Shown here piece after piece: positions 40,413 through 45,791 of a stretch of DNA of 52,007 nucleotides. The stretch spans positions 25,604-77,610 of the forward strand of contig CAYNWD010000002.1 in the NCBI GenBank assembly GCA_964400835.1. The letters are read 5' to 3'. The stretch comes from an uncultured Gammaproteobacteria bacterium (lineage in GTDB: Bacteria > Patescibacteriota > Microgenomatia > UBA10105 > UBA927). Below the pieces are notes generated by a model, which made no database searches, was not told the origin of the DNA, and saw only the letters and a list, made by a program, of their open reading frames with translations. Each line of letters opens with the position of its first letter. Positions within the stretch are counted from its first letter, which is position 1. Position numbers and translations under genes: made by a program.

Positions 40413-40441
40413 ATTGTACCCAACTTCCCTTGCCCTGTCAA
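40413..40441 (-). promoter_or_regulatory. greA promoter TTGACA-17-TACAAT
   Basis: The minus strand reads TTGACAGGGCAAGGGAAGTTGGGTACAAT. Its -35 abuts the -35 of the divergent tRNA-Glu promoter. Confidence 0.7.
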
Positions 40442-40458
40442 GGCCAAGCTGATAGAAT
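40430..40458 (+). promoter_or_regulatory. tRNA-Glu promoter TTGCCC-17-TAGAAT
   Basis: The -10 ends 9 nt before the first tRNA nucleotide. Confidence 0.6.
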
Positions 40459-41994
40459 CAAATCCGCGCCGCGTTCGTCTAGAGGCCCAGGACGACAGGT
40501 TCTCAACCTGTAAATCACCGGTTCGAATCCGGTACGCGGTACCAAAGTTGATTTTTGATCCAATGACTTCTGTATTAGAGCAAAAGGAAGGCCTAATTGC
40601 TCGGTTCCAATAAGTCCGTCCTTATAGACAATACCCTTTGGAAACAATAAGGCTTGGAACATCTGTTTGTGTCCAAAGGTTGCTTCTAACCAAATTGAGG
40701 CTACGTTATTAAATAGGCTCTCGGAAAAGGCAACTAAATAATCTATATCAGTCTCTTCAGTCCTTGCTTCTGATCGCTCAACTTCCTTGATAACAAGCTC
40801 TTCTTTAATAGCCTGATTCTGCTCTCTGTAATCGTCATCACTAATAATGCCCTCTAGATTTTTGCGAACCAGCTTTGTTTGTAGCTCTTTTAGCACAGCG
40901 ATATTTCCATCTATGCGTTTCACCGAATCAATAGCCTCGCTTTGTTTCTGCTTCCAAACGTCATATAGAACCTCTTGAAACAATCGTTGAAACTGCTTGT
41001 TTGGTTGAATTCTCTTTAAAGCATCAAAGAAAACTTGTTCAAACAGTTCTTTGGAGACTCTGGTTTTGCCACACAAGCAATGATAATACGCATATCGTTT
41101 ATTCCTTCCTCTAGATCGGCTAGCAGTTAAACCTTTACCACAGTGTTCACATTTAGCAATATTCTTCAAAGGAAAATCAGGATTATTTAATAATCTAGGA
41201 ACAGCAGTAAAAGATACGCCTTCTCGTATTTGTTGGACTTTGTAGAATAATTCTGGGCTTATGAGTTTTGAATGAAGGCCATCTATATCCACTCCCCAGT
41301 CTTTGACCGTAAGACGGCCAATGTAGAGCTTATTTTGAAGCATATTAGCGACCGCTTGAGTAGATATTCGGTTACCGTTTTTTGTTCTGACACCCCATGA
41401 GTTCAGCTTAGATGCTATATCTTTTAATCTATGACCCCCTTGAGCGTACACTTCAAATGCCTTTTTGATATACGGTGCTGTCTGTTTATCAATAACTAAA
41501 CCTGCCTTTGTATTCTTGTAACCCAAGGGAGCACCCCATGCCCATAACCCTTGGTTGACCCTTTCCTTTAATCCTTCTTTTGTTCGCTCCGCTCTAATAT
41601 CGTTATCTAGCTGTGCAACCGCTGCATAAATAGTCCCCATAAAATTGCCCTGGGAAGTATCGTCTATTGGCTCTGTAACGGATCTAAGAATAATATTATG
41701 CGCTATTAAGGTGGTCTTGATTGCAAGATAGTCTGCAGCTATACGAGAAACGCGATCAATTTTATGAACTAAAACAACGTCAGTTTCTTTTCTATGTTTA
41801 TTGCAAAATTCAAGAAGCTTAAGTAATTGTGTTCTGTTTGCGCTTTTCGCTGATTCTCCTTGCTCTTGAAAGACTCCAACAACTTCCCAGCCTTGTTTAT
41901 TGGCGTACTCTCTACAAATATTTTCCTGATAAGTTAAGCTATACCCTTCAACTTGTTCTTTTGTTGATACGCGGGTATAAATAACAACTTTCAT
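40438..41994 (-). CDS. Large serine recombinase (integrase); the last ~35 codons read antisense through tRNA-Glu
   Basis: MKVVIYTRVSTKEQ (catalytic Ser), recombinase domain, zinc ribbon CEHCGKGL...YYHCLC, coiled-coil region. The ORF continues past the compositional boundary at 40545. Confidence 0.85.
   Translation of the reverse strand: MKVVIYTRVSTKEQVEGYSLTYQENICREYANKQGWEVVGVFQEQGESAKSANRTQLLKLLEFCNKHRKETDVVLVHKIDRVSRIAADYLAIKTTLIAHNIILRSVTEPIDDTSQGNFMGTIYAAVAQLDNDIRAERTKEGLKERVNQGLWAWGAPLGYKNTKAGLVIDKQTAPYIKKAFEVYAQGGHRLKDIASKLNSWGVRTKNGNRISTQAVANMLQNKLYIGRLTVKDWGVDIDGLHSKLISPELFYKVQQIREGVSFTAVPRLLNNPDFPLKNIAKCEHCGKGLTASRSRGRNKRYAYYHCLCGKTRVSKELFEQVFFDALKRIQPNKQFQRLFQEVLYDVWKQKQSEAIDSVKRIDGNIAVLKELQTKLVRKNLEGIISDDDYREQNQAIKEELVIKEVERSEARTEETDIDYLVAFSESLFNNVASIWLEATFGHKQMFQALLFPKGIVYKDGLIGTEQLGLPFALIQKSLDQKSTLVPRTGFEPVIYRLRTCRPGPLDERGADLILSAWP
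40468..40544 (+). tRNA. tRNA-Glu (anticodon CUC), CCA encoded
   Basis: Folded by hand. Acceptor GCCGCGU/ACGCGGU; D arm GUCU-AGAGGCCCA-GGAC; anticodon stem ACAGG/CCUGU with loop UUCUCAA; T arm ACCGG-UUCGAAU-CCGGU; discriminator A; CCA. Confidence 0.92.
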
Positions 41995-42004
41995 GGGTTG
42001 AGGA

Positions 42005-42202
42005 TCACTTTTCATATTGGGTGTTCTTGGGTGGGGAGTCAATAACCCCAAGTTGTTTATTGGAACCTTTTGAGCCTACAACTGAAGATATTATTTCTGC
42101 TAAAGAGTAAAATTGAGCCAATAAATCTTGAACATCTCTGTCCGACATGCTCCTATACTCACCCCCTAATATTTTTCTTGCTTTGCTTACAGTAACCGCC
42201 AT
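42005..42202 (-). CDS. Small hypothetical protein (65 aa) upstream of the recombinase, possible directionality/DNA-binding factor
   Basis: Trimmed to MAVTVSKARKILGGEYRSMSDRDVQDLLAQF. Its own promoter lies upstream. Function is an inference from position only. Confidence 0.4.
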   Translation of the reverse strand: MAVTVSKARKILGGEYRSMSDRDVQDLLAQFYSLAEIISSVVGSKGSNKQLGVIDSPPKNTQYEK

Positions 42203-42296
42203 AAAAAAAGCACTACCTTTCCAGACCAATCCAGGTCAGGGAAAAGTAATGCCTCGCGGCACGGTGGCTCAATGCCCCTATTACTGTATGAAATCA

Positions 42297-42325
42297 ATAC
42301 TACCGCGTCATTTAAAAGTTGTCAA
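42297..42325 (-). promoter_or_regulatory. Promoter TTGACA-17-TAGTAT for the small ORF plus recombinase
   Basis: The minus strand reads TTGACAACTTTTAAATGACGCGGTAGTAT. Confidence 0.65.
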
Positions 42326-42346
42326 TTTTATAAAGGGGATATGCCT

Positions 42347-43210
42347 CTATTGGGTAACAAGTGGTTTATTTGATCTTGGTTTCTCTCCTTTTTTTAGTCC
42401 AGTGAGTGACGGAAATATGAGATAATCTTTTTTTAGAATTGAGCAGTATATTTCAAAAACACTGTCAAAAGATAAAAGTGTAAAGTATTGCGGACACTCC
42501 AAAGCTATAACCGCGTCTCCAAGTTTTAAGCATCTTGTTTTCATATCTGATCGTTTATAGTCAGCTTTTATTTCAGAAAAGATACTTAGGTGATTTTTAA
42601 AATCTCTATGAGTACCGTATTTACCGTTAACATTTTTATCCAAAAACATATCAAGAATAGCGCTCTGTTTTATCCAAAATTTCTCTTGACCACATTGACC
42701 AACACAACGAATATCTTCAGTGAACTTATGGAATCCATCTTCGGTGAATTCAAGGTCTACCTTGTTAGTTTTGAAACCAGAGTTGTTAGCCACATATCCA
42801 TCAATTATTTCTTCAAATAACCAGTAGAATTGCAAGATATAGCTGTAAACAATAGCAAGTGCCTTATCTTTGTTATCAATTGCCTCTTTGTTCTTAATAA
42901 GTTCGCTAAGAAATAACAGAATTTCTTTTAAATCTCTTGTAGAACGACTTACGTTACTAAACACATTAATTGCGTCAGAAAGTGATGCTTCTTCGCGTAA
43001 TATAAAATAGAAATTGATTAATGGAACAATGAGTGCCTCCTTAAACTCGCGAAAAATAAAAAGGGAAGAAAATTTCTTTGAATTAACTAAAATACTTTCT
43101 ATGAGCTGTTTCTGTGAAGGGTGACCCAGCAATCGCTTTATTTGAATTGAAGTCTCAAGATAATACTGGTCTTTAGGACTCGCTTCATGTGGTTTTCTTT
43201 TCTTCTTCAT
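42347..43210 (-). CDS. Island gene C: hypothetical 287-aa protein, possible split PIN-like nuclease fold
   Basis: N-terminal YYLETSIQIKRLLG and C-terminal LGDAVIALECPQYFTLLSFDSVF resemble the first and last acidic motifs of PIN domains, separated by a long insert. Weak, by eye only. Confidence 0.5.
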   Translation of the reverse strand: MKKKRKPHEASPKDQYYLETSIQIKRLLGHPSQKQLIESILVNSKKFSSLFIFREFKEALIVPLINFYFILREEASLSDAINVFSNVSRSTRDLKEILLFLSELIKNKEAIDNKDKALAIVYSYILQFYWLFEEIIDGYVANNSGFKTNKVDLEFTEDGFHKFTEDIRCVGQCGQEKFWIKQSAILDMFLDKNVNGKYGTHRDFKNHLSIFSEIKADYKRSDMKTRCLKLGDAVIALECPQYFTLLSFDSVFEIYCSILKKDYLIFPSLTGLKKGEKPRSNKPLVTQ

Positions 43211-43853
43211 AATGCTCTTCGTACGGAAATAAGTTTAATCCGGTTTTTTGAAGGCTGATCGTGGCGATTTTAACGTCTTTCAATTCAATGTCATTACTCA
43301 ATAGCAATGCAGTGACTGAAACCAACGCCTTCGCTTGTTGGACGTCTATATTACGCCATAAATTAAATCTCATTATTGAATCAACAGTGCTCACCAACAT
43401 TGAGAAATGTTCATCATTACCAGTATAATTCCAAATTTCATTAATTAAATCTTTAACTTTAGAATAATACATTGCGCTTTCTGGCTGGCCTAAATTAGTC
43501 GCGAATTTATTCAATTCCTCAAACATCGTCTGAAGAAGAGGTTGTCTTTTTATTTTCCTATATGCCAAAGATTGGCGTACATCGGCTGGCTGCGCAGTTG
43601 CTGGTTCGTCAATTTGCATCTGACTTGCCAGGGTTTGTGGTTTTTCCGTTTTAATAACAACTGGCTCACTATAAGTGCCTATTGGCATCCATTCTGCAGA
43701 TGAGATTTTCGGGGTTTCCTCTTGGTGTAAAGGGTATACATTATCACCAAACACAATTGAAGTTCTTGAGTGACCTGAATATTCAGCTACTTTTAACGAA
43801 GCCGCATAAGTAAAGTCTTGATTTAAGTGGTAATGAATTGGTACGGTGCTCAT
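43185..43853 (-). CDS. Island gene B: hypothetical 222-aa protein, no recognisable domain
   Basis: ATGA overlap with gene A and a 26-nt overlap with gene C. N-terminal beta-like part, low-complexity linker, helical C-terminal half. Confidence 0.5.
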   Translation of the reverse strand: MSTVPIHYHLNQDFTYAASLKVAEYSGHSRTSIVFGDNVYPLHQEETPKISSAEWMPIGTYSEPVVIKTEKPQTLASQMQIDEPATAQPADVRQSLAYRKIKRQPLLQTMFEELNKFATNLGQPESAMYYSKVKDLINEIWNYTGNDEHFSMLVSTVDSIMRFNLWRNIDVQQAKALVSVTALLLSNDIELKDVKIATISLQKTGLNLFPYEEHYEEEKKTT

Positions 43854-44536
43854 GCTTTTGAGGGAATCAGTTTTAAAGATTCTTGAACTGTTGAACTAAC
43901 TAATTTCCTTATTTCTGTTATGTATCTATTAAGATCCCTAGCTCTACAATCTTTATCTTTATATCCATCAACATCCAAATAAGTCATAACTTCTGAAAGG
44001 CCTTCAGAATCTAACTCAAACTTTGTATTTGGGCCAAATTTAGCGAGGCCCTCATCTTTTGAAACTGGTCCGAATAAATAATGAAACTTATAGTTCTCTC
44101 TTTCAAAATCTGCACTAAAAACAGCGTCAGAGATTTTCTGACCAACTATAGCCTCAATTTCCTTATCTTTTGGATAAAACTTTTCTTGAAATAAAGAAAC
44201 CAATTCTGGATATTTTAGTGCAGTTTTATTCAAAAGAGTGTGTCTTATACCTACCCTCAAAATATCGGTAAGTGGGAGTTTTGAAGTATAAGTGGTGATA
44301 ACGAATTCAAGAAAAGCGAAAAATTTATCCTCATCTTTAACATCGTCACAAATAACTGCTAATCTTTTGTGTTCAAGAAAGCATGCGAGTTTTTCTTTCT
44401 TGTCAAAGAGATCTATCTTAAGAGCATTCGTTTCCCAGTCGGGAAGCGTTTTATTGATTTCAGCCCCTATTTCATCTTTGAATCGGTAGAATAGCAGATT
44501 GGGCTTTATGACAAGCTCCACAACGATTCGTTTCAT
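43850..44536 (-). CDS. Island gene A: hypothetical 228-aa protein (size and an RVGIRH motif recall the uncharacterised TIGR04255 family; unverified)
   Basis: First gene of the operon. Leaderless-type promoter directly upstream. Confidence 0.5.
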   Translation of the reverse strand: MKRIVVELVIKPNLLFYRFKDEIGAEINKTLPDWETNALKIDLFDKKEKLACFLEHKRLAVICDDVKDEDKFFAFLEFVITTYTSKLPLTDILRVGIRHTLLNKTALKYPELVSLFQEKFYPKDKEIEAIVGQKISDAVFSADFERENYKFHYLFGPVSKDEGLAKFGPNTKFELDSEGLSEVMTYLDVDGYKDKDCRARDLNRYITEIRKLVSSTVQESLKLIPSKA

Positions 44537-44543
44537 CAGTCTG

Positions 44544-44572
44544 ATTATATACCTCTAAGACTTAGTATTCAA
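44544..44572 (-). promoter_or_regulatory. Promoter TTGAAT-17-TATAAT with a CTAAG-N-CTTAG palindrome (44555..44565) in the spacer; the -10 ends 7 nt before the gene A ATG
   Basis: The minus strand reads TTGAATACTAAGTCTTAGAGGTATATAATCAGACTGATG. Confidence 0.7.
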
Positions 44573-44598
44573 GAAAACTCTACCAAAATATCAGTGCT

Positions 44599-44802
44599 CT
44601 ATTTTATTAAGGTTTCTAAAGCAGTATTGAGAGCCTTAGCGATCTTGGTTAATGTCTTAATGGTAGGATTGCGCTTGCCCAGTTCAATTGAGATAACAGA
44701 CTTAGGATCCACTTTGGAAAATTCCGCTAACTTTTCTTGAGTTAGGCCTTTTTGCCTACGAAGGTTCCGAATTCTTTCACCAAGCTTTTTGTAACTTGCC
44801 AT
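44599..44802 (-). CDS. XRE-family helix-turn-helix transcriptional regulator
   Basis: GERIRNLRRQKGLTQEKLAEFSKVDPKSVISIELGKRNPTIKTLTKIAKAL is a canonical Cro/CI HTH. 67 aa. Confidence 0.88.
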   Translation of the reverse strand: MASYKKLGERIRNLRRQKGLTQEKLAEFSKVDPKSVISIELGKRNPTIKTLTKIAKALNTALETLIK

Positions 44803-44890
44803 ATTGACTCAAATATGGCGTATATGCCAGACTACGAACAGGAAATATATTCCAGATTTATTGATAAAAATACTGCTACGACAATATAAA

Positions 44891-45187
44891 ATGATGAAAA
44901 AACTAGAATACAATTTTGAGGACAGCTTATTTGAGAATATTTTTAATATCCTTCTTATAGCTAGTGCCGTCTCTGTGATAACTAGTCTCTCTTCATTTCC
45001 TCTTTTAAGTGCAATTGAATTTATCGTGGGTTTGTTTAATAAAGATGCGTTTGCTTATGTGACTGATAAATATGAGCCATTCAGGATTAGTGTATTCAGC
45101 GGTTTTTTGGGTTCTATTTTTACTTTCGCGTATTTGACAGTTAATGAGTGGCATAAATCCCGTCAGAGAGGGGGTGAGGCTACATGA
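44891..45187 (+). CDS. Small 2-3 TM membrane protein, unknown function
   Basis: Start taken at the ATG (MMKKLEYNF) rather than the TTG at 44804. Hydrophobic segments ILLIASAVSVITSL and VFSGFLGSIFTFAYL. Confidence 0.45.
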   Translation: MMKKLEYNFEDSLFENIFNILLIASAVSVITSLSSFPLLSAIEFIVGLFNKDAFAYVTDKYEPFRISVFSGFLGSIFTFAYLTVNEWHKSRQRGGEAT

Positions 45188-45387
45188 TGAAATACGCTAA
45201 GTACATTCTTGTGGCAGCGATTGCTGCGTTTTTAGGTTGGGCGTGGGGTGATAACAATGTGCGTTCAACAGTAAGTATGAACCTACAAAACGTCATTTCC
45301 CGTAGTGTTGAAGCTCCTAATGGAAGATGTATTACTACAGAAGATTTCAAGTTAATTGAATTTTTTTCTAATCCAACCTGGAAATAA
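45184..45387 (+). CDS. Small single-TM protein, unknown function
   Basis: ATGA overlap with the previous ORF. N-terminal anchor YILVAAIAAFLGWAW. Confidence 0.45.
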   Translation: MMKYAKYILVAAIAAFLGWAWGDNNVRSTVSMNLQNVISRSVEAPNGRCITTEDFKLIEFFSNPTWK

Positions 45388-45427
45388 AGAAGGGTTAAGA
45401 CTAAAGAAAATAAAGCACTTTTTATTT

Positions 45428-45453
45428 GTGTGTATGAGGATTACACACTTTTC
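45428..45453 (+). terminator. Intrinsic terminator after the two small plus-strand ORFs
   Basis: GTGTGTA-tgaggat-TACACAC followed by TTTTCT. Confidence 0.6.
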
Positions 45454-45791
45454 TGTATGTTTAGCTTCAATTCTACACCCACTTGCACGCAACTACACGT
45501 AACAATCATGTAACACTTGCGTACACACATATACCAAACACGTCCGCGCTGTGCGTACGTGTTAACCTCAATGATAAATCTCGCTGTGAAAATTGAACTA
45601 CTCCTCCCCTAGGTGCCTTTAAACAGGATTCGTATTAGAATAAAGAATGGTAATACTTTGGTTGACTAGTTAGGCACGTAGCTAGATACAAACGCCCACT
45701 GCCTATATGAAGCTAGAAGCGGGTTCCAATTCTCAATAACGTGGGGCACAAAAGATTTAGTGCAATCTCTATACTTTTCTCCTACCATTTC

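Follow-up and report, generated by a model that had tools for sequence, protein, structure and literature searches.

A conserved, unannotated gene cassette pairing a predicted PIN-like nuclease with an overlapping partner gene

We analysed a stretch of 52,007 nucleotides (hereafter the window; contig CAYNWD010000002.1 of assembly GCA_964400835.1, positions 25,604 to 77,610 of the forward strand), deposited as an uncultured Gammaproteobacteria bacterium and placed by GTDB in the Patescibacteriota. It carries a small island with three tightly packed genes, here called A, B and C, preceded by a gene for an XRE-family helix-turn-helix (HTH) protein. The cassette formed by these genes is real, conserved and unannotated; nothing found marks it as a defence system, and XRE gating is no general trait of it. 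Its conserved unit is the B-C pair and not the trio, gene A being exchangeable. The reading that we favour, and hold at about even confidence, is that B and C constitute a VapBC-like toxin/neutraliser cassette of new families to which A is accessory.

Results

Gene C (42347..43210, minus strand) encodes a 287-aa protein with a basic N-terminal tail, and its homologues have the same basic N-terminus, which supports the start codon. A preliminary description of this region, made from the sequence alone, could not name a domain with confidence in any of the three proteins, and database searches agree with it. A, B and C have no meaningful match in Pfam, NCBIfam or PHROGs and no match in PADLOC-DB v2, and sequence-profile searches of the PDB with the three proteins returned nothing significant. 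For C there is no Pfam match at E<=1, which leaves it outside the hidden Markov models (HMMs) of the PIN clan. When 5.8 billion proteins were searched through a word index, C had no more than two relatives, at 62% and 58% identity, and A and B had none. It was an exhaustive HMM search seeded by three C sequences that revealed the C family, which comprises at least 373 cluster representatives at E<=1e-3, with 142 at E<=1e-10, nearly all of them full length at 250-300 aa.

The family has a strongly conserved set of acidic residues. Within a 112-sequence alignment E55 and D232 are present in every sequence (112/112 each), D249 is present in 111/112, and position 19 is acidic in 111/112 (D in 68, E in 43); T20 is kept in 106/112 and an aspartate or glutamate at position 238 in 90/112. 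The depth of the alignment also governed structure prediction with AlphaFold2 (AF2), as the model of C had a pLDDT of 44 when built from three sequences, and a pLDDT of 95.2 with a pTM of 0.91 when built from the 112. This model covers gene C only, A and B being known from sequence. It begins with a strand (residues 15-18) that terminates at the first acid, continues with a strand (45-48) and a helix (50-73) that bears E55, and then remains all-helical up to about residue 230. A helix (231-238) begins at D232, a strand (244-247) precedes D249, and a further strand spans residues 262-265. Two stretches (approximately 12-75 and 225-270) make up the core, and the insert of about 150-170 aa that separates them is all-helical.

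Taken together, the alignment and the model place at least four conserved acids at the C-terminal ends of strands or at the starts of the helices that follow them. E55 lies on the helix following strand 2, and a catalytic glutamate in this position marks the VapC-like class (Matelska 2017, PMC5499597). The preliminary description had likened the two ends of C to the outer acidic motifs of a PIN-like nuclease split by an insert, and this comparison holds up: the acids are kept as a near-invariant tetrad and the split β/α core is modelled with confidence.

Sequence similarity to known PIN proteins was sought across the family. PF01850 (PIN) is the only Pfam family that matches more than one member, in 3 of the 112 full-length sequences (best E 2e-4); after the insert had been spliced out it was the only family matched, in 4/56 cores (best E 8.7e-5), and all of these matches lie below the gathering score. 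A profile of the spliced cores, compared with the PDB, ranked VapC11 and VapC3 at the top (E 0.3-0.5), with D232 and D249 falling on VapC aspartates. A Foldseek search of the whole C model against the PDB and BFVD gave no significant match, but the 46 matches returned were mostly PIN proteins (best E 0.69, TM 0.23-0.37); the HARP-type RNase P came first, and VapC4, VapC2, SMG6, Utp24, PAE0151, AF0591 and 1o4w were also among them. The low global TM values are attributed to the insert of about 170 aa, which breaks the global alignment. We conclude that C very probably belongs to the PIN-like superfamily as a new family, one that retains its acidic site and lies outside all curated models; nuclease activity is predicted from the conserved residues and the model.

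C also contains cysteines, C169-x3-C173, C227 and C239, that flank the boundary between insert and core (window 42500-42710). Positions 173 and 227 are cysteine in about 55% of the family, and cyanobacterial homologues have more of them (C-x3-C and C-x-C-x2-C). This pattern suggests a zinc site or a disulfide in a subset of the family.

Gene B (43185..43853, minus strand) encodes the 222-aa partner of C. Proteins of the B family have a variable N-terminal half, followed by a helical domain that is conserved over about 130 aa and has a near-invariant tryptophan (W166) and an h-h-F-P motif, and then a tail that is usually acidic and short. The family alignment contains no conserved polar residues of catalytic type. 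B itself matched no family in Pfam, NCBIfam, PADLOC or PHROGs and no PDB sequence, and neither B nor 17-22 of its relatives matched any DNA-binding family. The last 26 nt of B (43185..43210, minus strand) are shared with C, whose ATG lies inside B in the +1 frame, while A and B share an ATGA (43850..43853, minus strand) in which A stops and B starts. The close packing reported in the preliminary description is thus read directly from the sequence, and the B/C overlap points to translational coupling.

Loci for comparison (given L numbers below) were gathered from twenty metagenome loci, further look-ups and local HMM iteration. Wherever the sequence preceding C is available, in about 22 other loci, the gene immediately before it is a B homologue. 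The two genes overlap by 8-41 nt in 18/20 other loci, the start of C falling within B and without exception in the +1 frame, and the stop codon of B lies only 10-49 nt before the first catalytic codon of C. The pair is also found on conjugative plasmids of Nostocales, including pCC7120gamma and pNPUN03, where a 136-aa B-domain protein is followed by a 284-aa C homologue; the 136-aa protein aligns with B in hhalign at 63% probability (E=7e-5), and the plasmid pair adjoins ParA/ParB and a tyrosine recombinase. From this conservation we are highly confident that B and C form an obligate, coupled pair.

Gene A (43850..44536, minus strand; 228 aa) is a distant relative of the TIGR04255 family. The preliminary description had noted a loose resemblance to this family, and the resemblance persists below the threshold of the NCBIfam model. 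Four relatives of A score 14.7-26.8 bits (best E=4e-6), under the membership cut-off of 30 bits, in a collinear alignment that spans about 170 of the 252 model positions; A from the window itself gives no match and so misses that cut-off. TIGR04255 is an uncharacterised family, sporadic in occurrence, and the literature searched contained no mention of it. In a 10-sequence alignment A has conserved polar residues at R98, K119, D137, H152, G156-P157, E162 and D188-x-D190.

The trio had been put forward as a unit, and this is correct only in part. It is kept in at least 11 other contigs, at 24-62% protein identity, but B and C are the constant part and A is replaceable: about 12 loci have A before B, and in about six kinds of locus its place is taken by other genes. 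Conservation across this range of identity also led us to reject the possibility that the three are chance open reading frames (ORFs). One contig, L001, which is the source of one of the two C relatives from the word-indexed search, carries the whole trio with proteins of 225, 222 and 280 aa and a B/C overlap of 29 nt; its A is 45% identical to that of the window, and its B 39% identical over the C-terminal 157 aa.

The genes that take the place of A are diverse. In L005 (333-1367) an SDH-type, ClpP-like serine protease (PF01972, 9e-19) occupies the position, and in L019, L020 and L023 an unrelated 199-aa protein does so. The Nostoc plasmids have a 115-aa ORF there, and a search of plasmids with an A-family protein gave no match. 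In L024 (3156-7989) a relative of C follows a histidine kinase with five GAF domains and a receiver-domain protein, the C-terminal part of which is weakly B-like (hhalign E=0.038). In L008 an unrelated N-terminal domain of 270 aa, which has no Pfam match and contains motifs such as IIGGPESS and FAGCRSFGTRAAG, is fused to B. A comparison of L008 (4274-5722) with L009 (189-1665) is instructive, as both have the same downstream MoeA-PBP fusion, and C proteins that are nearly alike, sharing 86-91% identity with one and the same representative, but a different first module, with L009 having a separate A gene.

This exchangeability raises the possibility, which we regard as doubtful, that B and C are the constant output of a modular, signal-activated nuclease system in which interchangeable inputs act on B as an adaptor. 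The inputs would tentatively be the TIGR04255-like A, the ClpP/SDH protease, the domain fused to B, and the histidine kinase with its receiver protein. It is likewise conceivable, if rather unlikely, that the helical insert of C serves such a system as a novel substrate-selection domain.

The regulator upstream of the cassette is a 67-aa XRE-family protein (44599..44802, minus strand), and its assignment was sound: it matches PF01381 (HTH_3) at E=1.7e-15, with 57 bits against a cut-off of 23. It is a probable local repressor. Between it and gene A lies a promoter-like sequence (44544..44572, minus strand), TTGAAT-17-TATAAT, with CTAAGtCTTAG in the spacer. These sequences had been described as a strong promoter with a palindromic operator; both are present, but neither exceeds chance. 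The region contains 8 promoter-like sites compared with 13.0±3.7 in shuffled sequences, that is, fewer than expected. The arms of CTAAG-t-CTTAG are 5 bp long; shuffling the 62-nt spacer yields a palindrome of that size in 29% of cases, and 20% of the island's 62-nt windows contain one. The promoter regions upstream of A and upstream of the XRE gene have no operator motif longer than 6 nt in common. Moreover, an XRE gene is found near the cassette in three loci only (the window, L017 and L026), at differing positions. The earlier view of the operon as XRE-gated is therefore not supported as a general property, and the XRE gene is best regarded as a local feature.

The -10 box ends 7 nt before the ATG of gene A (44537-44549), and there is no Shine-Dalgarno sequence. 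L001 (170-191), L004 (approximately 1490-1512) and L014 (approximately 1370-1390) also have a -10-like box 7-9 nt ahead of the start codon of A. The mRNA of the cassette, or of gene A, may be leaderless.

The cassette is located on an island whose proposed features (AT-rich DNA beside a tRNA and a serine recombinase, with the trio as main cargo) are all borne out by the evidence. GC content is 35-39% over the island and about 50% in the flanks. A tRNA-Glu(CTC) gene (40468..40544, plus strand) marks the left edge. A contig from an independent sequencing run (L030) is 100% identical to the window across 43296..45706 and ends at 45706, which indicates an island of about 5.2 kb (approximately 40545 to 45706) of which the trio is the main cargo; this break may be the right junction (attR). 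A search for direct repeats bounding the island found none that were convincing, and the absence of clear bounding repeats is as expected for a serine recombinase.

The recombinase gene (40438..42015, minus strand) encodes a large serine recombinase with all three expected domains, Resolvase (PF00239, 1.5e-33), Recombinase (PF07508, 2.1e-17) and Zn_ribbon_recom (PF13408, 1.9e-4); it also matches the integrase family PHROG 95 at 7e-96 over residues 9-482 of 537. Its ORF runs antisense across the entire tRNA-Glu gene (40438-40560 region) and stops at 40438. The last 35-55 residues lie outside the integrase-homologous region, which suggests that their coding sequence is host DNA on the far side of the left junction; the C-terminus of the protein would change upon excision of the island.

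Several small ORFs complete the element. One of 74 aa (or about 65 aa if it begins at M10; 42005..42229, minus strand) shares about 11 nt with the start of the recombinase gene, and a promoter-like TTGACA-17-TAGTAT of its own (42325..42297) lies just downstream of gene C; the ORF may encode a recombination directionality factor. Two small hydrophobic ORFs of about 98 and 67 aa (44891..45387, plus strand), which overlap by ATGA, are divergent from the XRE gene and are followed by a terminator-like hairpin (45428-45448); they could encode membrane toxins, holin-like proteins or exclusion proteins of the island. Neither the 74-aa ORF nor the two hydrophobic ORFs matched a family in Pfam, NCBIfam, PADLOC or PHROGs. 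A 350-nt non-coding stretch (45390-45740), rich in short AC/CACG repeats, precedes the first host gene (45741).

Since the trio fills most of a 5.2-kb element, beside only the recombinase, a small ORF, the XRE gene and two small membrane proteins, we also considered that A, B and C might be life-cycle genes of the island, acting in replication, excision control or transfer, and not its cargo. We find this highly improbable, as no replication or transfer family was matched and the pair or trio occurs elsewhere between housekeeping genes without a recombinase nearby.

Elsewhere the cassette is a solitary insert amid housekeeping genes such as those for a HAD hydrolase, a sulfatase, MoeA, MgsA and a phosphodiesterase, with patatin, VIT-VWA and HNH genes as occasional neighbours. 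Pattern scans of 185k representative genomes found no relatives, nor did scans of phage and viral (IMG/VR) collections, and the family is concentrated in uncultivated lineages. That the three are phage structural or replication genes was considered and rejected, as no PHROG or phage match was obtained.

The preliminary description had proposed a defence module. We found no positive evidence for this: PADLOC searches over 144 family members gave no consistent match, only scattered ones to one or two members each, no viral relatives were found, and the neighbours are mostly housekeeping or plasmid partition genes. In its most explicit form the proposal is anti-phage abortive infection, in which A or its replacement would sense infection and act on B, freeing C to attack RNA of the host or the phage. 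Several observations fit such a scheme, namely the modular first gene (A, SDH protease, fused 270-aa domain, or GAF kinase with receiver protein) before a constant pair, the location on a mobile island, and the patatin, VIT-VWA and HNH genes beside some copies. Given the inconsistent PADLOC matches, the mostly housekeeping neighbours and the failure of the genome scans to find the family, we consider it unlikely.

Discussion

In the toxin/neutraliser reading that we favour, C would be a VapC-class PIN-like nuclease dependent on Mg2+/Mn2+, most likely an RNase, whose catalytic core is interrupted, past the helix with the catalytic glutamate, by about 170 aa that form a new helical domain. B would be a new non-enzymatic, non-DNA-binding partner that binds C and keeps it inactive in the manner of an antitoxin; it would be produced in fixed proportion to C, because the start codon of C lies inside B. 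A or its substitutes would modulate or trigger the pair. The protease and receiver-domain variants at the position of A suggest that this action is exerted on B, and the replacement of A by a ClpP-like SDH protease in L005 fits proteolytic control of B. In the window copy the XRE protein would provide the transcriptional repression that B, having no DNA-binding domain, cannot give. On its serine-recombinase island of about 5.2 kb at tRNA-Glu, the cassette would act in addiction or in stress-activated growth arrest, and possibly also in abortive infection.

Plasmids, integrative islands and solitary chromosomal inserts are the typical homes of toxin-antitoxin (TA) modules. The cassette occurs in just these settings, that is, on Nostocales plasmids with ParA/ParB, on the island described here, and as a solitary insert. 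It shares with the VapBC type II modules, in which VapB is the antitoxin of the PIN-domain toxin VapC, the PIN-type D/E-E-D-D tetrad, with the catalytic glutamate on the helix after strand 2, as well as a partner gene that lies upstream of the nuclease gene and overlaps it (by 26 nt in the window and by 8-41 nt in 18/20 other loci), as is usual for a translationally coupled antitoxin. It differs from VapBC in that C, roughly double VapC in size, carries the helical insert of about 170 aa and, in the window, matches no PIN HMM. B proteins, at 130-480 aa, contain no AbrB, RHH, PhD or HTH domain and have their conserved part at the C-terminus, and a third gene is frequent in B-C cassettes.

Three-component TA systems offer a second comparison. 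The window copy resembles omega-epsilon-zeta and PaaR-PaaA-ParE in having a separate gene for an HTH protein, the probable repressor, before a putative non-DNA-binding neutraliser and a putative toxin. Systems that combine PIN, HTH and DUF955-protease components have also been listed (Matelska 2017, PMC5499597), and the protease-linked variant in L005 recalls these, with an SDH protease where they have DUF955. In contrast to such systems, XRE is not conserved here, A is without a counterpart, and the protease is of the ClpP/SDH type and not DUF955.

A number of observations weigh against a toxin/neutraliser cassette. C from the window lacks any significant PIN similarity (no Pfam match, best Foldseek E 0.69), and its model has four clear strands, not the five that form the parallel sheet of the α/β/α Rossmannoid PIN fold. 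B has no DNA-binding domain, and its N-terminal half is not conserved, so that it does not correspond to the DNA-binding, autoregulating antitoxin of VapBC-type systems; B and C also have roughly double the size of VapB and VapC. In L014 (2097-2715) and L015 (1-580) B is frameshifted and C is intact, with the frameshifted sequence identical in two metagenomes, which is awkward for an essential antitoxin. Conversely, C is interrupted in L009 (1547-2667) and L012 (443-1266), in the manner of decaying toxin genes, and toxin genes are often found decaying. The broken copies are so to be seen as decay of either partner, or as unrecognised recoding.

The intact C alongside a frameshifted B would be easier to accommodate if C were a non-toxic enzyme of regulated RNA processing or turnover, similar to HARP/PRORP or to the arch-bearing FEN nucleases, with B as a specificity or assembly subunit. 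The C core is interrupted by a helical domain as in these enzymes. HARP-type proteinaceous RNase P gave the top Foldseek matches, genes for a histidine kinase and a receiver protein precede one relative of C, and the insert, between S2 and H3, is in the position at which FEN-type nucleases bear their helical arch (PMC5499597). However, none of the Foldseek scores reaches significance (E>=0.69, TM<=0.37), the glutamate-on-helix signature is that of VapC and not of FEN or PRORP, and C has an obligate partner gene. The patchy, mobile distribution on plasmids and an island, the very low sequence conservation, and the disruption of C in some loci also speak against such a role, which we judge to be quite improbable.

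Toxin modules built on PIN domains abound and vary widely, and by itself the finding of a further one is a well-supported advance in annotation more than a surprise. If a VapBC-like cassette is the correct reading, three new families are added, a PIN-like nuclease with a helical insert, its obligate partner B, and a branch of TIGR04255, and the nuclease family, which comprises at least 373 sequence clusters, has no model in Pfam, NCBIfam or PADLOC. Should the pair instead be the output of interchangeable inputs, it would represent a previously undescribed family of systems for defence or conflict, centred on uncultivated bacteria and cyanobacterial plasmids, and would provide the first functional handle on TIGR04255-like proteins. 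As a toxin/neutraliser cassette, it would mean that a partner that does not bind DNA, acting jointly with upstream genes that are exchangeable, can control a PIN toxin, and that annotation pipelines should recognise a wider range of TA-like and defence-like cassettes, especially in uncultivated lineages.

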